A stretch of 64,000 bases of DNA from a virus (Duplodnaviria; Caudoviricetes), in the IMG/VR virus record IMGVR_UViG_2639763197_000004, positions 1-64,000 of that record; one strand, given 5' to 3'. Positions 15,636 to 23,196 of this stretch are shown one piece after another (position 1 is the first letter of the stretch; each line of letters starts with the position of its first letter). Made by a program: the position numbers and the translations under genes. The notes below the pieces were generated by a model. The model saw only the letters and a list, made by a program, of their open reading frames with translations, was not told the origin of the DNA and ran no database searches.

Positions 15636-16529
15636 TTATCCCAGCCAGCTCGGCGCCAGGATTTCGGCGGTGCCTGCCCATTCGTTGCCGCTGTTGGCAT
15701 CCTTCACCAGGAGCTTGCGCGCAGCGCCTTCCAGCGGGGACGGCACCACCAACAGGCCGGGGTTTACGCCGAGTGGGCGACCACCGTCAGCATGGAAACC
15801 CTTCATCGCTGCACGCGCTGCGGCGTAGTTCTCTGCGTTGAGGGGTGCCTTTGAGCAGAACGCGAACTGCCAGAAACCGAAACCGACGTTCGCACGAGCA
15901 TCGACGCCATAGCGGTATTCATCGCGCATAAAGACATTTTCGTCGTCCATGCTGGTCATGGCTTTGAGGTCATACTTACGGCGCAGTTGGAAGATGATGG
16001 GCTTGATCGCCCGGCTGACATCGAGCAGATACCAGGCTGGGCCTTCACCGTCCTGGTAGTTGCTGACGGAGATTGCAGTGCCGGTGCCGTCAGTGTTCGG
16101 GTAGACCGGATGATCGGTGTCGAAGAAGTTCTGGCCGTCATAGCACAGGGTGGTCAAGCCAGCTTTCAACAGACTGAACACCAACTCGTCCGGGTGCGCA
16201 GTAGACGCCCGGCCCATCTCGGCAAACAACGGCTTATAGACGCCGATCTGGTCATCTTCGATGGCGTCACGCGGCACGCCCACGGACGACTCATACTTCT
16301 TGTTGGTGATCGAATAGCTGTGCGCCGCCATGTTTTTGAGAACACGGTCGCCGATCCACTCGCGAAAGTTCGGGAACTGCCCCAACCAACCATAGGTGTT
16401 GCTGGCCGACGTCGACGGCACGGTCGTGGCAATGCGCGCCCAATCGGTCGGCGTGGCTGCCTGGGCATTTTGGAACTCGGCCCGGTACGCGGTGAACAAC
16501 GCGGCCAAGGTGCCAGAAGTAATGATCAT
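15636..16529 (-). CDS. Major head protein, Mu T-like
   Basis: YGWLGQFP.FREWIGDR, CYDGQNFFDTDHPV, YGVDARANVGFGFWQ. Confidence 0.95.
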   Translation of the reverse strand: MIITSGTLAALFTAYRAEFQNAQAATPTDWARIATTVPSTSASNTYGWLGQFPNFREWIGDRVLKNMAAHSYSITNKKYESSVGVPRDAIEDDQIGVYKPLFAEMGRASTAHPDELVFSLLKAGLTTLCYDGQNFFDTDHPVYPNTDGTGTAISVSNYQDGEGPAWYLLDVSRAIKPIIFQLRRKYDLKAMTSMDDENVFMRDEYRYGVDARANVGFGFWQFAFCSKAPLNAENYAAARAAMKGFHADGGRPLGVNPGLLVVPSPLEGAARKLLVKDANSGNEWAGTAEILAPSWLG

Positions 16530-16555: not shown

Positions 16556-17524
16556 TTACGCCTTGCCCTTGATGAAGTCCGCTTCGCTCATGTCCAGCAG
16601 CTTGGCGACGTGTTGCTCTTCGGAGTTGAGCGCAGTGGTGGTTTTATCGTGCTTGCGCTCGTCCAGGTTGGAGGGGGCAGCAACGACTGGCGCCGCGTCC
16701 ACGAATGCCTTAAAACGCGCCAAACCGGTTTCGTCCTGGCAAGCGGCGCGGTGATAGTCGGCCGTTGCCGGGGTTATTTTTCCGGCCTGGGTGGCCGAGG
16801 TGATCAGCGCATCAACTTGCTTGTTGTGTTCGGTTTTCTTCTGATCGGCCAAGGCTTGCTCGGCATTGGTGGCTCGTAGCAAAACGCTGTCGTAGTCCGC
16901 CCGTGGCATGAACTGCTCAAGGTTGGGTTTTTCGGTGTTCGTCGCTTGCGCGGTTGCTTTGAGTTGAGCCGTGGCCGCAAGGGCCTGTTCTTCGGTCGCC
17001 GTAGCAGGCAGGCCGAGTGCAGTCAGAAGCGCAGGTGAAAGCGTCACAGGCGTGACCTCCGTGTTTTCTTGATTGAGGGCGGTCAGCAGGAAGTTGGGTT
17101 TATTCGTCAGGCCCGCGCTGACCAGGCGAGCAATACGGGTGGTGTCGGGATCGAAGTCAAAGACGGGGGAAAGAAAGCGGTACTCGCGGTTGATGACTTG
17201 CTCGGAGGCACGAGGGGTCCAATCGACCAAGCCCCACAGGGCGCCGTTACGCAGCTCCAATTGCTTGATCCAGCCAGCCGCTGGTGCGGACTCGCCCTTG
17301 CTGGCGCGGTGCTGGGTGGCGTGTTCCCAGTCAATGGGCAGGTCAATAGCGCGACCGTGGAAACTGGACTGGACCAACGTCCCGGCTTGTTCGTCGAACA
17401 GCCATTGCCGACCATCGCGGCCGGTGACGTTGGGACCAGGGGGGATTAGTTCGACCCACTCCGGGGCCTTGCCGTCAGAGACGGTGGCGGAAAGGTCGGT
17501 GTTTAGTGCGAGTTGGGTTTTCAT
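16556..17524 (-). CDS. Prohead protease/scaffold, Mu I-like
   Basis: GRDGR, PIDWEH, APAAGWI, EYRFLSPVF, GLTNKP. Confidence 0.93.
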   Translation of the reverse strand: MKTQLALNTDLSATVSDGKAPEWVELIPPGPNVTGRDGRQWLFDEQAGTLVQSSFHGRAIDLPIDWEHATQHRASKGESAPAAGWIKQLELRNGALWGLVDWTPRASEQVINREYRFLSPVFDFDPDTTRIARLVSAGLTNKPNFLLTALNQENTEVTPVTLSPALLTALGLPATATEEQALAATAQLKATAQATNTEKPNLEQFMPRADYDSVLLRATNAEQALADQKKTEHNKQVDALITSATQAGKITPATADYHRAACQDETGLARFKAFVDAAPVVAAPSNLDERKHDKTTTALNSEEQHVAKLLDMSEADFIKGKA

Positions 17525-17555
17525 GCCGCCAGTGTGTGAGAACTGGCGGCATGAG

Positions 17556-17577
17556 TGAGTATCAGCGGGGTTTAAGA
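17556..17577 (-). promoter_or_regulatory. Late promoter box, copy 2
   Basis: Identical 22-mer upstream of gene I; adjacent 13-bp inverted repeat at 17521-17554. Confidence 0.75.
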
Positions 17578-17603
17578 CTTTCGGGAGAAGGAGTAGCTAA
17601 AAG

Positions 17604-18038
17604 CTACTCCTTGAAAAAGGAAAATGGTTTGAGTTTTCTAAGAAGTCTCATGCGCAATGACTTAATTCTCTTCTCTAGAAAAGATGCGCCAACTGTTAAC
17701 TCGCTCCGCAATCTTGAATGCTTGACCCAAGCGTCATTGGTAAGCAGATGACTGAGCATTCTTAGTGTTTGTGGGTCATATCGTGGATAAAATCTAAGTT
17801 CGAAGATTACCGCGCATTGCCGGTCAACATACATTATGTCGCCTAGATCTTGAGGTTTCACCAGGTCGCGTATTAGTCCGTGGTATGTCTCAAATTCTCG
17901 TAGGCGCGCTTCTCGACCCTTCTCAAAAACATACCGGCCAACACCCCACATGAAAGTAACGGCGGCGCCGAACATCCCCAATGGAACCACATTGTCTTTC
18001 AGAAGCGTAAAAAACGCCTCAAGGGTGAACCACTCCAT
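17604..18038 (-). CDS. Accessory membrane-anchored protein (moron) between G and I
   Basis: AT-rich 144-aa ORF, AAGG SD, one hydrophobic N-terminal segment, upstream TAGAAT -10. Confidence 0.75.
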   Translation of the reverse strand: MEWFTLEAFFTLLKDNVVPLGMFGAAVTFMWGVGRYVFEKGREARLREFETYHGLIRDLVKPQDLGDIMYVDRQCAVIFELRFYPRYDPQTLRMLSHLLTNDAWVKHSRLRSELTVGASFLEKRIKSLRMRLLRKLKPFSFFKE

Positions 18039-18230
18039 TTTACCTTCCTTGCTTAGCTATTTGCTGCGAAGGCGTCATTCTATACACGACCCGGAAAAAT
18101 CGTCTCACTGTCATAGCCTGTACATGGGGCCTCCAGCCAATCTAACGCAGGTCTAACGCACAATCGCCCCACCACAAGCGGCGGATGTACCCGTGAGACG
18201 AGTTCGCCTCGCCTGTGGGATTTGGCGGGA

Positions 18231-18713
18231 TCAGTCTGTTACTGGCTCCAACAGGTACTCTTGAATGATCAATAGCACCTCTGTTTCGTCGTCTGCCGAA
18301 AGGCCCAGATACTCCCGCGCCGGGATGTCACCCCAGGGAATAGACTGACCTTTACCTGTCTTACCTGACGCTCCTTTCCTCTGCCCAAACTGGTGGACCG
18401 CGCCATAGGGACGGTCTGTACCGAAGGCCAGCTCCGTGCTGGTGACTTGTTTGCGCAGCGTGTCCTGGAGCGTGCCTTTCTCTCGCAGGATTCCGGGGCC
18501 TTTCTTTCTGGCGAGGGTGACGGGCGAGAGTGGCGCCCAGGGCGAGCCATCCGGGGCCACCTTCTGTCTAAACCGCTCATCGGTGGATATCTGAAGGTAT
18601 TCACCTATGTCATTGAGCGGGGTTGTCAGGTCGCCCAGGCGGTCGGCCAAATCGTCCAGGACCTTGCCGACCTGGCTGGTATCTAAGGTGACATCGAGCA
18701 TTGCACCTGCCAC
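18231..18713 (-). CDS. Virion morphogenesis protein, Mu G-like
   Basis: PDGSPWAPLS, YGAVHQFG, IPAREYLG. Confidence 0.9.
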   Translation of the reverse strand: MAGAMLDVTLDTSQVGKVLDDLADRLGDLTTPLNDIGEYLQISTDERFRQKVAPDGSPWAPLSPVTLARKKGPGILREKGTLQDTLRKQVTSTELAFGTDRPYGAVHQFGQRKGASGKTGKGQSIPWGDIPAREYLGLSADDETEVLLIIQEYLLEPVTD

Positions 18714-18729
18714 GGTTCTCTCCTACTAT
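18701..18729 (+). promoter_or_regulatory. Sigma70-like promoter, antisense to the late operon
   Basis: TTGCAC-17 bp-TACTAT. Confidence 0.7.
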
Positions 18730-18735
18730 CAGTAC

Positions 18736-18817
18736 ATCCCATCGGATGAGCAGCCCCTGTCAGGGCCTCCATGCCTACATCCGGGGCGGCCCCGGCGTGA
18801 CAGCGTCGGGGCTTTTT
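18736..18817 (+). ncRNA. Candidate ~80-nt kissing-loop small RNA
   Basis: Two hairpins with complementary 6-nt loops CTGTCA (18757-18762) and TGACAG (18798-18803); the second hairpin ends in a T tract; promoter directly upstream. Confidence 0.65.
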
Positions 18818-20084
18818 ATTGGGGGCGGCGATACAACCTAACGCCGAGGCGCAGATCATCCAGGTAGTCTTCGCTGTCAGCAACAAAGCCCGTTACGCCA
18901 TCCCAGCCATCATCGCCTACTTCAAACACAGCAAGCGCAGGTGCTGGGTTGCCCTCGACTTCAAAGCGCGCAAGGTAACGGCGGCGAACTACCGCTTTTT
19001 GCTGTGCATAGAGCCATTCCAAGCGAACCCAAATTTCATCAGGTTCTCGCAATGCCTGAGCAACAAGAAGTAGCGTGCGCTCGCGGCCACGCTTTTGTAC
19101 CTTCAAGGCCCCTGTGCGCTTGACTGTGAACATATCGCGACCAATCACCACAGAGTCACCGGTCACATCCTTGAACAATGCTGGCGCGCTTTGTTTGGCA
19201 CCGAACTCGGCCAGGAAGCGATCCACGTATACATCGTCGGTCAAACCCGATGGCAGCAACTGACTGGCAGGAACGGAGCGTGGTGCTGGCAGTGCATCGC
19301 TAGCGCGGCGATTAGGCAGGCCTGCCGCGTGAGCGCTGGCGGGCTTGCCCTCAATTTCAGGCAGTGGATCATGTGCCCGCAAAGGAGGGACCGCGCCGGA
19401 AAGTTTCGACTGACCTGGTGCATATTCGAAGCCTGGGTCAATTCCCTTTGGCACACGAACAGTTCGCGGTCCTTCGGGGCTGTTCTTGCCAATGACCCTG
19501 TCTTCCCACTCGATGGCGGGCGCCGAGCCAACTGTAAGCCCCATCCGCTCTACATCTCTGGCTGAGACCATGAACTTTTTGCACTTGCAGCCCCAACCAT
19601 TTTGCGGGGTATGGGTTGCCCACCACGGATCATCAAGCGGGAGGGTTGTACCGTTCCAGGACAAGTGCATCGGCCGAGGGTGAGCGCTGTCGCCGTGGCG
19701 ATAAACAGCATATGGGCGACGCTTGCGCAGTTCAGGATCAGCCATCTGCGCTTCGCGCCCGGCGTTATAGGACTGCCGCAAGTTTGTTTCCCAAATGACA
19801 TTAGTGCGCCATCCACGACCGCCGTTGTACTGCCAGCCATGTTTGCCGACTACCTGGTCGAAATCTTTTCTGAACTGTTCCAGGGTGGTTCCGCTGGCGA
19901 TAGACTTCTCTACAGCGCCCCGCAAGTCGGTCAGCAGATCTCTTTTTACTGCACCGGCTACAACAAAGGCATAGTCATGTTCAGTGGTATAGATATCCGT
20001 CCAGGAGCGAGTTGGCAGATTAACTTTGTTGCGGAAGTAGTCGATCTGCTCTTTGAATGGCAATGAGCCATGAGAGACGGCCAC
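18816..20084 (-). CDS. MuF/gp30 minor head protein with C-terminal nuclease-like (PBECR-type) extension
   Basis: AFVVAG, TNLRQSYNAGR, R..H..W.G, P.NGWGCKC, IDPGFEY; extra ~150 aa containing 'AQALREPDEIW' and 'W.GVTGF'. Confidence 0.85.
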   Translation of the reverse strand: MAVSHGSLPFKEQIDYFRNKVNLPTRSWTDIYTTEHDYAFVVAGAVKRDLLTDLRGAVEKSIASGTTLEQFRKDFDQVVGKHGWQYNGGRGWRTNVIWETNLRQSYNAGREAQMADPELRKRRPYAVYRHGDSAHPRPMHLSWNGTTLPLDDPWWATHTPQNGWGCKCKKFMVSARDVERMGLTVGSAPAIEWEDRVIGKNSPEGPRTVRVPKGIDPGFEYAPGQSKLSGAVPPLRAHDPLPEIEGKPASAHAAGLPNRRASDALPAPRSVPASQLLPSGLTDDVYVDRFLAEFGAKQSAPALFKDVTGDSVVIGRDMFTVKRTGALKVQKRGRERTLLLVAQALREPDEIWVRLEWLYAQQKAVVRRRYLARFEVEGNPAPALAVFEVGDDGWDGVTGFVADSEDYLDDLRLGVRLYRRPQ

Positions 20085-20086
20085 TG

Positions 20087-21649
20087 TTATAACCCTCTCA
20101 AAATATCATTACGTCCAGCCAAACTAGCCGCCATCATTCCATCGGCCATGGCGTCGGCCAGTTGATTGGTGGTCATAGTTGGATAGGTCTCTATCAACCT
20201 ATCCCGGAACTCTTCCAGGCTGCTGACGGAGTCGAGCAGCTCCTTGACCTGGTCGACCATATCATCCAGATATGTCCCGGCTGTTCGCTCCAACGTCTGC
20301 ACCTGGTTGTCCACGATGTCCGGTATCGCTATCGGTTTTTTGGGCACTTGCTCGCTATTGGTCGCCTGCGCCAGTACTGGTGCAGCGACTGGCGCAGCTA
20401 TACCGAGCAGATCGGCACCTGCGGCCGGTGCCGGGATATTGAGCTTGTCGCGTATAACTGATTGCTCGGCCTTCAAACCTAGAGGCACCAGTTCCTTTAG
20501 CGCCTCGATCAGGATTTTGGTGTTTTCTGGCTTCGGTACATCAATGATTAACCGGGGATATGGCCGACCAGGTGCAAAGTTCAGTTCGCACCAGGGCCGC
20601 ACAAAGTAGCGGTTCAAAGTGTTCGATTCGGCCTTGGCGTCAGCTTGCAACAGATCCAGGCGGACTTCGTTATGGATCGTTGCCTGGGCCTGGCTAGAGC
20701 CGTCATCGGTGGACATGGTCTGGCCGACCACCGCTTTGCTGATCTGCTTGTCCCACCACTCGGCGAGGCCTTTAAAGAAGTCGCCTGCGCCGGTTACGTT
20801 CGCCGCCTGGGTGAAGTCGATACGCATGCTGTCCGGGATCACCGCTGCTGCATCGCTGCCCAGGTTGGCTACGGCTGACATCAGGGTATTGATATCGTCT
20901 TTGCTCGCGCCTGGACCATAGCGGCCCACACGCATAGGCATGCCGAAGATATCCGCGAAGCCCATCCAGTCCTTCCAGGTCCAGGCTTTGCACATGTAGC
21001 CAACCGCCGCCAAACGCGCCAGACCACCCCTGATCGGCAAGCCCGAACGGATGCGCGGCAGGTGGACAATGAACTTGTACGGCGTCAAGGCAATGCCATT
21101 GACCATATCGGCCTCATCGAGCAGGCGCAGCTCCCGGCCGGTGTCGCGGTCGAACTGGAAAAACCGCTGATCCCGTGGTTCAAAGCGCGATGGGTTCCAG
21201 GTCTTGCCGCTACGGTCCCACATGATTTCGGAGACGGCATAGCCCTTGCCCATGGCATCGGTGAGGTCGGCTTGCAGTTCCCCGAACTCTGGAGACTCCA
21301 CAATTTCCTTGAGTTGGTCGGCGCGCCTTACGTCCTCGGCGTCGTCGCTGGCAGCTTCTACCCGGATAGCAAGGCCAGACACCGCCAACTTACGTGTGCC
21401 TAACACCGAGGCGTAATGCAGATCCCGTTCTTCCATCTCCTCGGCAAGGGTCAGGTAGTCATGGGCCGACCCTTCGGCGGCGGCTTGCAGGATGGCGGCA
21501 AGACGACCAGGCGTCAGACCGCTGGCTACCGACTGGTGCCAAACTTGGCGAATGCCGGTGGTGCGGGCTGCGGCCAGTTCTTCGGTGAGCTTGTCGTATT
21601 GGATCGGGCGACCGTATTGGTCCACGATTTTGGATTGAGCCATTACCAA
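20087..21649 (-). CDS. Portal protein, Mu gp29/DUF935-like
   Basis: EEMEERD.HY, FGMP.RVGRY, ISKAVVGQT. Confidence 0.92.
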   Translation of the reverse strand: MVMAQSKIVDQYGRPIQYDKLTEELAAARTTGIRQVWHQSVASGLTPGRLAAILQAAAEGSAHDYLTLAEEMEERDLHYASVLGTRKLAVSGLAIRVEAASDDAEDVRRADQLKEIVESPEFGELQADLTDAMGKGYAVSEIMWDRSGKTWNPSRFEPRDQRFFQFDRDTGRELRLLDEADMVNGIALTPYKFIVHLPRIRSGLPIRGGLARLAAVGYMCKAWTWKDWMGFADIFGMPMRVGRYGPGASKDDINTLMSAVANLGSDAAAVIPDSMRIDFTQAANVTGAGDFFKGLAEWWDKQISKAVVGQTMSTDDGSSQAQATIHNEVRLDLLQADAKAESNTLNRYFVRPWCELNFAPGRPYPRLIIDVPKPENTKILIEALKELVPLGLKAEQSVIRDKLNIPAPAAGADLLGIAAPVAAPVLAQATNSEQVPKKPIAIPDIVDNQVQTLERTAGTYLDDMVDQVKELLDSVSSLEEFRDRLIETYPTMTTNQLADAMADGMMAASLAGRNDILRGL

Positions 21650-23196
21650 ATGCCTTTAGTGGAGCGCCAGCCGGCGCCGATCTGGATCTCGCGATCATGC
21701 TGGGACGCGGGCAGGACTCGGTGATATTCGATGATCTCGACTTCCTGGCGAGAGGCGTAGTCGGCCAACACAGCAGCGATACCCGCGTCGCCATGGCGCT
21801 TGGGGCCGGACTTTTCGCCTTTCTCGTTGGTGCGCTTTTCTGGAATACGGGCCACGCCCTTGACCATCCGAAAGGCGCGCACGTCGCTAACCACGTCCTT
21901 GTCGGCCGGGATGTCGTAGAAGGTGTCGTCTTCAAGGGCAGCCTTGAACGGCGGCATGTTGTCGCGATACCAACCTTCGGTGAGCATCACCCGCTCAATA
22001 CGGTTAAAACCGAACTCAACGGCAGTGTCTTCCGATAATTGCGAACCGTTGCCTCTGGCGTCATCGGCGCCATTGAGGAAATTGGGTAAGCGACGAATGA
22101 TGTAAAACTTGATTTGCAGTTGCTGCTTGAATGGGACGTTACGCAGCTCAACCACAAAGGGTGTGCGTTTGCGTAGGTTCTGTTCCTTGAGCAACGGCCA
22201 GAAGACTGAGAGGTCGCCAGAGCGTCCGAAGTCCATACCGTAAAAACTTTGCACGTCCAGTGGAATGGCTGACAGAAGCGGGAGCAAATGCTCTTCGCAC
22301 CATTCCAGGGACTCGGCCAGGCGCAGATGTTCAGCGATGGTTTCATAACCCTGCGGATAGGCCAGGCGCAGAACCGGCACGTTACGGTTACTACGCTGCT
22401 CGACCAGGGCCATACTGAGAAAGGCACCGCCGCCTTGGGACGGCACGCAGTCCAGTTCCTCGTCGGCTGCATCGCCGTAGAATCCGTATACATCCTTCAC
22501 CCAGGCAAGTTCGTCCTCAAGCCTGTACTCAATTCCCTTACGCAAGCAGACACGTTTGTACAGCCCGTCAGCTACCGCTTCACCGAACGTGCAGCGGAAC
22601 ACTTCGCCATTGCGCTTGCCTGCCCGAATCTCGTTGACCAGGTCATTAAAGGGATTTTCGGTTCCATCGTGGGTGCTGATCACATGGACTTCACCACCCC
22701 AAATCAGAAGAGCCATGGCCGCTTTCAGCAACTCGGCCAAGTCCGCATGGAATGCAGCTTCGTCGATCACCACAACACCCTGGCGGCCGCGCAGGTTGGA
22801 TGGTCGGCTGGTCAGCGCCACGATGCGGTGGCCGCTGGGAAACGCGATGGTGTAGGTTTTGATGTGTTTGTCGGGGTCGCTATCGGGCCAAATGCCTTCT
22901 TCTATTTGCTCGGCCGCGTAGTTGTAGGCCCGCGCCCACATGGCGCAGGCCTGGATATATTCGACTGTCATGTCCTGGTTGTAGCCCAGGTAGTAGACCG
23001 TCTGGCCGCCCGCCGATTTTTCTGAGGCTGCCACCAGGACGTTATCTGCTGCTTCGGCCCAGGTGAGGCCAATACGCCGGGACTTCTCGCCCACCTTGAG
23101 CGGGGCGCGGATACCGATCCATTCCTTCTGATAGTCGAGTAGCACGGCCGGTGCGAGCAAGGTGGCGGTGCTGTCCAGGATAAGGGGGAGGCTCAC
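21643..23196 (-). CDS. Terminase large subunit, Mu gp28-like
   Basis: EKSRRIGLTW, VIDEAAFH, GMDFGR, RHGD. Confidence 0.93.
   Translation of the reverse strand: MSLPLILDSTATLLAPAVLLDYQKEWIGIRAPLKVGEKSRRIGLTWAEAADNVLVAASEKSAGGQTVYYLGYNQDMTVEYIQACAMWARAYNYAAEQIEEGIWPDSDPDKHIKTYTIAFPSGHRIVALTSRPSNLRGRQGVVVIDEAAFHADLAELLKAAMALLIWGGEVHVISTHDGTENPFNDLVNEIRAGKRNGEVFRCTFGEAVADGLYKRVCLRKGIEYRLEDELAWVKDVYGFYGDAADEELDCVPSQGGGAFLSMALVEQRSNRNVPVLRLAYPQGYETIAEHLRLAESLEWCEEHLLPLLSAIPLDVQSFYGMDFGRSGDLSVFWPLLKEQNLRKRTPFVVELRNVPFKQQLQIKFYIIRRLPNFLNGADDARGNGSQLSEDTAVEFGFNRIERVMLTEGWYRDNMPPFKAALEDDTFYDIPADKDVVSDVRAFRMVKGVARIPEKRTNEKGEKSGPKRHGDAGIAAVLADYASRQEVEIIEYHRVLPASQHDREIQIGAGWRSTKGIW

Follow-up and report, generated by a model that had tools for sequence, protein, structure and literature searches.

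The window considered here, 64,000 nucleotides long, is the first part of the virus record IMGVR_UViG_2639763197_000004 (Duplodnaviria; Caudoviricetes), a Mu-like Pseudomonas provirus whose record comprises 91.5 kb. The late head genes of the window lie on the minus strand. Between the genes of MuF, a minor head protein, and G, a virion morphogenesis protein, there is a gap of 102 nt (18714-18815, referred to below as the F-G gap), extending from the MuF stop codon TAA (18816-18818, minus strand) to the start of G. On the evidence of covariation, this gap holds the gene of a structured RNA of about 80 nt, located on the plus strand and antisense to the MuF/G junction; the G ribosome-binding site and GTG start (18713) sit under its predicted promoter. 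MuF itself consists, as indicated by profile matches, of an N-terminal Phage_Mu_F domain and a variable, toxin-type C-terminal domain (MuF-C), as in the MuF polymorphic toxins, and here the latter belongs to the PBECR2 family. A 100% identical MuF is present in Pseudomonas proteolytica DSM 15321 (locus L018). The coordinates of the features are collected in Table 1.

The RNA gene and its predicted fold

The RNA is predicted to fold into a P1/P2 domain followed by a terminator hairpin, P3, with the loops of P2 and P3 (L2 and L3) paired with each other in a kissing-loop helix. An earlier note on this DNA, made from the sequence alone, had described a promoter, two hairpins and a T-run converging on the MuF stop codon, an exact complementarity of the two 6-nt loops, and two G-U pairs that form on the plus strand only. 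Every one of these elements is in its place: L2 and L3 are exact reverse complements of each other, and the plus-only wobbles are G18795.U18806 and G18788.U18813. Hairpin 2, identical with P3, has 11 pairs, eight of them G-C, and is the top terminator-like site in the interval from 14 to 26 kb. An intrinsic terminator, that is, a G+C-rich hairpin with a U-run, is formed by P3 but not by P1, P2 or the loop-loop helix. Folded as a single sequence, the plus strand reaches -45.4 kcal/mol (z -2.26, with 6 of 200 shuffles as good), and the minus strand is not better than its shuffles (z -0.72). The promoter of the window matches the consensus at 7 of 12 positions and was missed by a generic promoter scan.

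A search of Rfam 15 with positions 17500-20500, at E values up to 10, gave nothing at or above a gathering threshold, the families of tRNA, C4 antisense RNA, ToxI and small ribozymes included. The best overlapping matches were anti-hemB (19.1 bits; gathering threshold 49.5) and suhB (15.2 bits; gathering threshold 41), neither of them relevant, in keeping with the statement of the earlier note that no named family could be recognised. Literature searches of limited reach turned up no paper on an RNA between MuF and G; neither Rfam nor the literature that could be searched contains the family.

Several other identities of the element were considered and rejected. A repeat resembling repetitive extragenic palindromes or miniature inverted-repeat transposable elements does not agree with the single copy in the provirus record and with at most three copies per genome; a miniature open reading frame or a CreT-like toxin does not agree with the variation of the AUG of the window RNA among homologues; and hammerhead, twister and pistol ribozymes gave no Rfam match. 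Two reading frames overlap the gap, 18607-18867 on the plus strand and 18683-18886 on the minus strand; the covariation has the pattern of an RNA.

Table 1. Coordinates of the RNA gene, of its neighbours in the window, and of related elements at other loci (given as locus:positions)
Feature	Position	Strand	Remarks
Covariance-model (R1) match	18722-18818	+	-10 box to MuF stop; 95 bits, E 3.1e-23
-35-like hexamer TTGCAC	18701-18706	+	within first G codons (opposite strand)
-10-like hexamer TACTAT	18724-18729	+	over complement of G Shine-Dalgarno; 17-nt spacer from -35
Predicted transcript	~18737 to ~18817	+	inferred start site
P1/P2 domain	18738-18786	+	covariation
P1 outer	18738-18740 / 18784-18786	+	CCC / GGG; AU bulge 18741-18742
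P1 inner	18742/43-18748 / 18778-18783	+	UCGGAUG / CAUCCG; CGGATG (18743-18748) is the hairpin 1 stem
P2 inner stem	18753-18756 / 18763-18766	+	GCCC / GGGC
Conserved unpaired segments of P1/P2 domain		+	AGCA and CCUCCAnnCCUA; unpaired consensus
Loop L2	18757-18762	+	CUGUCA; 5' half of kissing-loop (pseudoknot) helix, pairs with 18798-18803
P3 terminator hairpin	18788-18797 / 18804-18813	+	hairpin 2 (18788-18813)
Loop L3	18798-18803	+	UGACAG; partner of L2
P3 with U-run	18788-18817	+	U-run after P3 to 18817, overlaps MuF stop codon
MuF	18816-20084	-	422 aa; minor head / DNA-pilot type; Phage_Mu_F residues 54-169, PBECR2 residues 289-419
PBECR2 domain	18828-19220	-	MuF residues 289-419; E 3.4e-29
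Codons K328-V-Q-K-R-G-R334	19083-19103	-	basic motif; last residue (R/H) opens BECR N-terminal helix
Codon T398	18891-18893	-	conserved alcohol residue in strand 4; domain T118 near-invariant; model strand 118-121
G	18231-18713	-	160 aa; virion morphogenesis protein, Phage_tail_S family; profile match E 5.9e-35
Mu-type portal	20087-21649	-	
Terminase-like	21643-23196	-	
Open reading frame, 144 aa	17604-18038	-	no family; between G and protease I
Mu-like protease I	16556-17524	-	
Major head gpT	15636-16529	-	
Second gap RNA, examples	L338:783-885	+	from loci L336-L354
	L345:2743-2845	-	
	L278:2467-2569	-	
	L281:2707-2805	-	
Gap elements B/C	L043:3740-3863		
	L047:3740-3867		
	L048:3773-4036		both elements in tandem
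	L049:3776-3897		
Orphan L078			degraded Mu-like remnant adjoining tRNA-Ser, with MuA/MuB-like genes, major head gene, truncated tape-measure gene
Orphan L074 (= L310)	L074:1447-1800		Aggregatibacter kilianii; between degenerate repeat and 32-nt-repeat array by cas2, cas1
Orphan L293	L293:1160-1600	-	Pasteurellaceae genome; I-F-like repeats directly after
Orphan L316	L316:1590-1720		Azomonas macrocytogenes; ends 3 nt before last repeat of 38-repeat array
Orphan L311	L311:2316-2534		betaproteobacterial metagenome-assembled genome; as a 145-nt "spacer" flanked by the last two (23, 24) of 24 repeats of 37 nt, both perfect

Conservation of the fold, the strand and the promoter

Among 65 loci with MuF relatives collected from genomes, the length of the F-G gap has two peaks, at about 100 nt and at 8-10 nt, with a gap of about 30 nt in some cases. 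The gaps of about 100 nt, found in Pseudomonas, Pasteurellaceae, Thalassospira, Thiohalophilus, Arenimonas and several metagenome-assembled genomes, can be aligned with one another. The proposed structure (P1, P2, P3 and the loop-loop helix) was tested on a MAFFT alignment of 22 homologues that was not fitted to it: 98.1% of the 616 cells were paired and 22 of the 28 pairs had changed on both sides. None of 500 shuffles reached any of the five measures used, and sliding the partners by one to three columns lowered pairing to 35-47%.

A covariance model, R1, was then available for searches; it was built without the pseudoknot, so that the loop-loop helix is not part of it. R1 gave 29 matches in 69 sources (two of them the window and the identical locus L018), and further matches at 21 of 80 viral loci from a pattern scan, at 34 of 80 viral MuF loci, in 3 of 151 genomes of the genus Pseudomonas and in 12 of 151 Pasteurellaceae genomes. 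The carriers are Mu-like prophages of Pseudomonas, Pasteurellaceae, Orbaceae, Brenneria, Thalassospira and others.

In the resulting set of 59 distinct homologues 98.5% of the pair cells are paired, and 24 of the 28 pairs show compensatory changes. Double changes occur at all nine pairs of P1, at three of four in P2 and at eight of nine in P3. The loop-loop helix, whose covariation had been proposed as a check in the earlier note, does covary: it is paired in 99.4% of cells, with double changes at four of its six pairs. Besides the CUGUCA/UGACAG of the window, the loop pairs CCGCCA/UGGCGG, CUGCCA/UGGCAG, CUGCCC/GGGCAG, CCGCCC/GGGCGG and CCGCCG/CGGCGG are found. The RNA is assigned to the plus strand because G.U cells outnumber A.C cells by 105 to 6; read in the sense of the mRNA, the same homologues are paired in 92.5% of cells. 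One pair of P3 is a U.G wobble in 46 of the 59 sequences.

The signals of transcription are conserved as well. The -10 box, TAnnnT, hardly varies at its T, A and last T in two alignments, one of 26 and one of 22 homologues; its variants are TATATT, TATAGT, TATACT and TATAAT, and a conserved TTG lies 17-18 nt upstream of it. The -35 element reads TTGCRC in Pseudomonas; in Pasteurellaceae TTGACT or TTGACG is combined with TATATT, TATGAT or TATAGT, close to the consensus. At least four U residues are found in the six columns after P3 in 47 of the 59 homologues. In the same set the unpaired GAGCA and CCUCCAnnCCUAC are kept at 70-90% or more, a conservation of unpaired bases that would be unexpected for a purely cis-antisense RNA.

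Some loci depart from the simple arrangement. One Pasteurellaceae genome (G214:C1:2182116-2182426, loci L298/L299) has two tandem RNA genes between MuF and G, with starts 214 nt apart. Two loci of the Pseudomonas type (L002:3767-4178 and L223:2776-3190) contain about 300 nt extra between the RNA gene and G, their gaps measuring 408 and 413 nt. At two others (L025 and L042), with a MuF-G gap of 503 nt, a divergent RNA of the same layout adjoins G and, as judged by eye, an open reading frame of about 100 aa lies on the MuF strand between MuF and this RNA.

The C-terminal domain of MuF

The C-terminal domain matches PBECR2 (Pfam PF18810) over profile positions 1-120 of 120, with 101.9 bits against a cut-off of 27.1. 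The earlier note had proposed an extra C-terminal domain of PBECR-like fold. Its family assignment is borne out by this match (E 3.4e-29); the domain is not extra but canonical in proteins of the Mu F type, according to the section on PBECR of Iyer et al. 2017 (PMC5512222). The same section describes the C-terminal PBECR-type domain of Mu gp30 as inactive in Mu and "probably" RNA-binding, and its orthologues with intact sites as likely ribonucleases (RNases), the site being formed by a His (in one family an Arg) of the helix at the N-terminus together with a Ser or Thr of strand 4. An AlphaFold2 model of residues 281-422 (mean predicted local distance difference test score 86.9) has one helix and four strands; R334 opens the core helix, and the fourth strand contains T398. 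R334 and T398 are therefore predicted to be catalytic, since the model puts them at the positions named in that section, from which the role suggested for T398 is taken.

Association of the RNA with the PBECR2 domain and its catalytic motif

Apart from the orphans described below and L075, a partial match at the start of a contig, all R1 matches lie directly after a MuF stop codon and in antisense orientation. Two expectations of the earlier note concerned the specificity of this association. One was that the RNA should co-occur with the C-terminal domain, and in the R1 search the phage loci carrying it had MuFs of the PBECR2 type only. The 151 Pasteurellaceae genomes contain 13 full-length PBECR2-type MuF matches (one of them split in two), and all 13 adjoin R1 RNAs; 36 further MuF matches in these genomes, covering about the first 217 residues (N-terminal) only, are without R1 in every case. 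The other was that an RNA equally frequent beside short MuFs would speak against the association; none was found by the three short MuFs (256-258 aa); the gap measures 0 or -10 nt in two of these, and at the third no G was located. In phage JBD25 a 1-nt F-G gap goes together with an altered catalytic motif.

To survey this motif, K328-x-x-K331-R332-G-[R/H]334, 112 distinct full-length MuFs of the PBECR2 type were aligned, 56 of which are linked to an R1 match. It is intact in 52 of these 56, the other four deviating at R332 alone, and in none of the 48 MuFs that have an F-G gap of 31 nt or less and are RNA-less. Eight R1-negative MuFs have a gap of at least 90 nt; the motif is intact in four of them, and several of these loci share, by eye, the layout of hairpins and loop-loop pairing. 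Residue 334 is R or H at all 64 loci with the RNA or with a gap of at least 90 nt, and at 4 of the 48 short-gap loci. Placed on the MuF tree, the RNA label changes eight times, at least five of these changes being forced by well-supported branches; shuffled labels change 37.8 times on average, and none of 500 shuffles had as few as eight changes. The distribution reads as that of an ancestral RNA that was then repeatedly lost. Because 56 of the 112 PBECR2-type MuFs are without it, the RNA is dispensable after decay of the catalytic motif. In the youngest RNA-less clade (L242-L268) the body of the RNA has been cleanly deleted and a remnant of the -10 box is kept; the decayed motifs of this clade vary (KIGE-RGN, KLGQ-RTN, KVGE-RSQ and small deletions). 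An R1 scan of one RNA-less lysogen genome (G005) found no relocated RNA anywhere in it.

A matched change in RNA and protein is also seen: four RNAs with ACG(U/C)CCA in place of ACCUCCA (L005, L217, L231, L012) belong to MuFs with K..K-P-G-H-(S/C) in place of K..K-R-G-H-A.

Other RNAs in the F-G gap

MuFs with other C-terminal domains have other elements in the same gap. In phage Mu, F and G overlap without a gap, and the C-domain has, by eye, a Thr where its relatives have a His. Pasteurellaceae MuFs with a Mu-type C-domain keep this His (DILHALRD), and at 16 of their 17 distinct printed loci the F-G gap contains a different conserved antisense element. This second gap RNA has a -10 box reading TATAGT, an acceptor-like stem that covaries, a hairpin that does not vary, a variable arm and a T-arm with the loop UUCGAAU. 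In 18 sequences, including the distant L278 and L281, eight of its 17 predicted pairs show compensatory changes, and it is predicted to be a tRNA-like cloverleaf. ARAGORN finds no gene in it, and neither this RNA nor that of the window gives a tRNA match in Rfam. The Pasteurellaceae sample was used here since the Mu-type MuF-C relatives of L049, at 11 loci, were too few for a rule relating the gap to the His. The tRNA-like sister family recalls the guess of the earlier note that the RNA might be a tRNA-like decoy; the window RNA itself is not a cloverleaf.

Two more conserved, structured gap elements, B and C, accompany MuFs whose C-domains match PBECR3 weakly or match no Pfam family. They were folded singly; their homologues were too few for an analysis of covariation.

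Orphan copies and CRISPR arrays

Five R1 matches, termed orphans, are located away from any MuF or G, and all five keep the fold. Four of them lie at the trailer end of CRISPR arrays, with four different repeat types, and two of these four have cas genes or Cas families beside them. The neighbours of the array in Azomonas macrocytogenes match the Cas2, Cas1, CRISPR_assoc and CT1975 families. The orphan of Aggregatibacter kilianii (L074) retains a 24-residue remnant of the MuF C-terminus, and the 145-nt unit of the betaproteobacterial array (L311) consists of the RNA gene and the last ~12 codons of MuF. A promoter-side repeat is perfect in L311 and matches at 21 of 32 positions in L074 (maximum of shuffles, 20), and was not found in L316 or L293. 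Relative to the array, three orphans are probably convergent and one probably has the same direction, as judged from the usual repeat orientations and the direction of the cas genes; the subtype names and the assumed direction in which the arrays are transcribed have the same basis. In three of the array-orphan genomes the copy at the array is the sole R1 match, and no PBECR2-type MuF was found in them with P0001 as query. A homologous small membrane-protein gene, with the shared sequence LLPYEIGLLF, adjoins two of the orphans (L074:1066-1278 and L293:1736-1963, both on the minus strand). These two may therefore share a locus history, though their CRISPR repeat types differ. As a conjecture, a phage fragment may have been captured into the array and kept by selection, and its terminal position would be due to the loss of older units beyond it.

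The Mu-like remnant that holds the fifth orphan, L078, has undergone heavy deletion (L274:9195-18860); its tape-measure gene matches only the first 604 of 1465 profile positions. The RNA of L078 is of the ACG(U/C)CCA type mentioned above.

As for the neighbouring genes in the window, searches of Pfam and PHROGs gave no match for the 144-aa reading frame downstream of G. A promoter-like site (17861-17833, minus strand) lies inside this frame, which occupies the place where Mu-like Pseudomonas phages have anti-CRISPR genes.

Proposed function and alternatives

We give about an even chance to the proposal that the RNA is the cognate inhibitor, or "immunity" RNA, of a virion RNase. The anatomy of the gene, the fold, the strand, the distribution and the link to the motif are shown by the results above; from sequence we infer the transcription of the RNA, its binding to and inhibition of the domain, and any toxicity of the domain. 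According to this proposal an independent RNA gene with its own sigma-70-type promoter would be transcribed antisense to the late operon, and its product would fold into the P1/P2 domain and the terminator hairpin P3, the loop of which would pair with the loop of P2. The RNA would be the partner of the PBECR2 RNase domain of MuF, a protein that would be carried in the virion and enter the cell together with the DNA. It would bind the basic catalytic face of the domain (K328..K331-R332-G-R/H334, T398) as a pseudo-substrate that is not cleaved, so that the RNase would be kept harmless in the lysogen and in the producing cell. Such an "immunity RNA", similar to a type III antitoxin, could in addition neutralise the RNase brought in by related phages.

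Action in trans on MuF-C is suggested by the tertiary fold, the conserved unpaired bases and the restriction to one C-domain family, by the loss of the RNA together with the motif, the matched change in RNA and protein and the presence of sister RNAs beside sister domains, and by the orphans, which keep the fold and persist without MuF. Inhibition is favoured for three reasons: the promoter has a constitutive look, whereas MuF is presumably made late and packaged; wherever the RNA has been lost, the catalytic configuration has gone as well; and orphans persist in genomes in which no MuF was found for them to serve. The pattern extends to the Mu-type domain: where MuF-C bears the His it has its own gap RNA, and gapless Mu is without that His, its domain being called inactive in the PBECR section of PMC5512222. 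More broadly, each BECR RNase family of MuF-C might be a virion-delivered effector with its own antisense decoy RNA in the F-G gap (kissing-loop for PBECR2, tRNA-like for the His-bearing Mu type), which would sit on the catalytic face and give the lysogen immunity to the injected nuclease. Hosts might have captured the decoy gene repeatedly, as the unit nearest the trailer of their CRISPR arrays, to shield the making or working of CRISPR RNA (crRNA) from that nuclease as an "anti-anti-CRISPR"; as a general module this is speculative and unlikely to hold in full.

Several points weigh against the proposal of an inhibitor. The data fit the role of a cofactor, cargo or substrate as well as that of an inhibitor. 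The metatranscriptome runs that cover the stretch consist of contigs of flat depth, without strand or ends, and are uninformative on a small RNA. The catalytic position of the window domain is occupied by Arg, not His, so that its activity is not assured, and the packaging and delivery of MuF are taken from the literature. A Foldseek search of the PDB with the MuF-C model gave no match at E values up to 0.001 (best E 0.21). In VIA-align the top Z was 3.5, colicin D tRNase scoring 3.5 and 3.0 and several CdiA-CT toxins and colicin E5 2.8-3.0, which hints weakly at a BECR fold but lies within the noise, as unrelated rows score equally. In four RNA-linked MuFs R332 is replaced by P or C, and the RNA-protein covariation may represent a single evolutionary event. 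Finally, the phylogenetically independent contrasts number only 5-8; on average 3.6-4.5 of them point in the same direction and 0.0 in the opposite one, the median p of the sign test is 0.06-0.125, 0.05 being unreachable, and the tree used was built from full-length MuF, motif included.

The coupling of the RNA to the motif and its specificity for one C-domain family would be the same if it were a cofactor, cargo or substrate, either packaged and delivered together with the DNA, guiding or activating the RNase, or matured by it. The RNA-binding that the PBECR section of PMC5512222 predicts for Mu-type MuF-C and the locus with two tandem copies are in favour of this, but a cofactor would be useless in the genomes where orphans survive and no PBECR2-type MuF was found, and a promoter that looks constitutive (sigma-70 type) does not suit a partner of a protein that is presumably late; we consider such a role unlikely. 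Rather doubtful, too, is a part in the conflict with CRISPR-Cas, in which the RNA would itself mislead Cas proteins as a decoy, or would target crRNA together with the RNase, with the array copies as a result or counter-measure. The position of four of five orphans at array trailer ends, with four repeat types and with cas genes or families beside two of them, points in this direction, as do a speculation in PMC5512222, where PBECR is treated, that these RNases target CRISPR RNAs, and the existence of RNA anti-CRISPRs (Racrs, described in PMC10651486). The RNA bears, however, no convincing likeness by eye to the four repeat types, its loop sequences covary freely, and the orphans number five only, CRISPR having been looked at in a minority of carriers.

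A cis-antisense role of the type I kind, in which the RNA pairs with the F-G intergenic part of the late mRNA and leads to its cleavage, to a change in G translation or to promoter interference, appears quite improbable. Complementarity is perfect by construction, the orientation is convergent and the promoter overlaps the ribosome-binding site and start of G. Such a role, however, needs neither the unpaired GAGCA and CCUCCA..CCUAC, kept from Pseudomonas to Pasteurellaceae, nor a covarying loop-loop helix; nor does it account for orphans that keep the fold without a cis target, and it does not predict the link to the MuF catalytic residues. That link is also left unexplained if the RNA is a moron-type small RNA acting in trans on host mRNAs, for example through the conserved CCUCC, which resembles an anti-Shine-Dalgarno sequence. 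For this very improbable alternative speak the RNA's own promoter and terminator, its variable presence among close relatives and the conserved single-stranded CCUCCA, and against it the fixed position and orientation across distant hosts and the restriction to one MuF C-domain family. The idea that there is no RNA gene at all, but a bidirectional or antisense-blocking terminator with chance complementarity, is scarcely credible: the hairpin and T-run are indeed those of a textbook terminator, and the z of the single sequence is only -2.26, but it is already contradicted by covariation that reaches well past the terminator, to P1, P2 and the loop-loop helix, and by the conservation of the -35 and -10 elements.

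Relation to known systems and significance

In type III toxin-antitoxin systems (ToxIN, CptIN, TenpIN) an endoribonuclease is neutralised by a small pseudoknotted RNA encoded adjacent to it. The module described here is similar in that a structured, pseudoknotted RNA lies beside the gene of a predicted nuclease, is phage-related, and would act on a protein, not on mRNA. It differs in that the RNA is a single unit, not tandem repeats processed by the toxin, two copies being found in one Pasteurellaceae genome only. At each phage locus it is encoded downstream of MuF and convergently, whereas a type III antitoxin gene stands upstream of its toxin in the same orientation, with a terminator between the two, and its partner here is the BECR domain of a structural virion protein, not a toxin of the ToxN/AbiEii type. 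If the RNA is an inhibitor, it would work like a type III antitoxin, but without the layout that defines the class. Type I systems differ in having a small hydrophobic peptide as the partner, in place of the 422-aa MuF; here, moreover, the antisense overlap is limited to the stop codon and an intergenic part of a polycistronic mRNA.

The MuF polymorphic toxins, as presented in the relevant passages of Jamet et al. 2017 (PMC5576092), likewise combine a MuF N-domain with a nuclease-type C-domain in the head module of temperate phages, and their protective factor, an immunity protein, is expected directly downstream. In the window the gap after MuF is followed by G (Phage_tail_S), and no small immunity reading frame was found immediately behind MuF in its own orientation; the downstream element is, unlike in the toxins of those passages, a non-coding RNA on the opposite strand. 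The domain belongs to the same PBECR/MuF-C family as treated in PMC5512222, with the same contrast between active orthologues and the inactive Mu gp30; the section on PBECR of that paper mentions no RNA, and the link between active site and RNA comes from the present analysis. Racrs (PMC10651486) and the CRISPR-guarded CreTA modules (10.1101/2024.01.05.574328) are, in what these sources say of them, also small phage-derived RNAs or modules in or by CRISPR loci. Racrs mimic CRISPR repeats, whereas the window RNA shows, by eye, no evident mimicry and in phages sits at the MuF-G junction; in CreTA, by the account given there, a crRNA-like antitoxin represses the toxin promoter. Compared with tRNA, the sister RNA has a cloverleaf and a T-arm, while the window RNA is no cloverleaf, P3 lying outside P1.

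The analysis would add a well-supported family of structured RNAs with an intramolecular kissing loop. That two other RNA types occupy this gap where MuF has a C-domain of another family suggests a rule and not a one-off, and the repeated embedding at the ends of CRISPR arrays ties the module, unexpectedly, to CRISPR biology. The function of the MuF C-domain has long been a blank in the biology of Mu, and the link to an RNA is the first testable handle on it. If the RNA does inhibit the RNase, it would be, as far as we know, the first "immunity" factor made of RNA against a nuclease that virions deliver, and would extend a logic like that of type III systems to phage proteins resembling polymorphic toxins.

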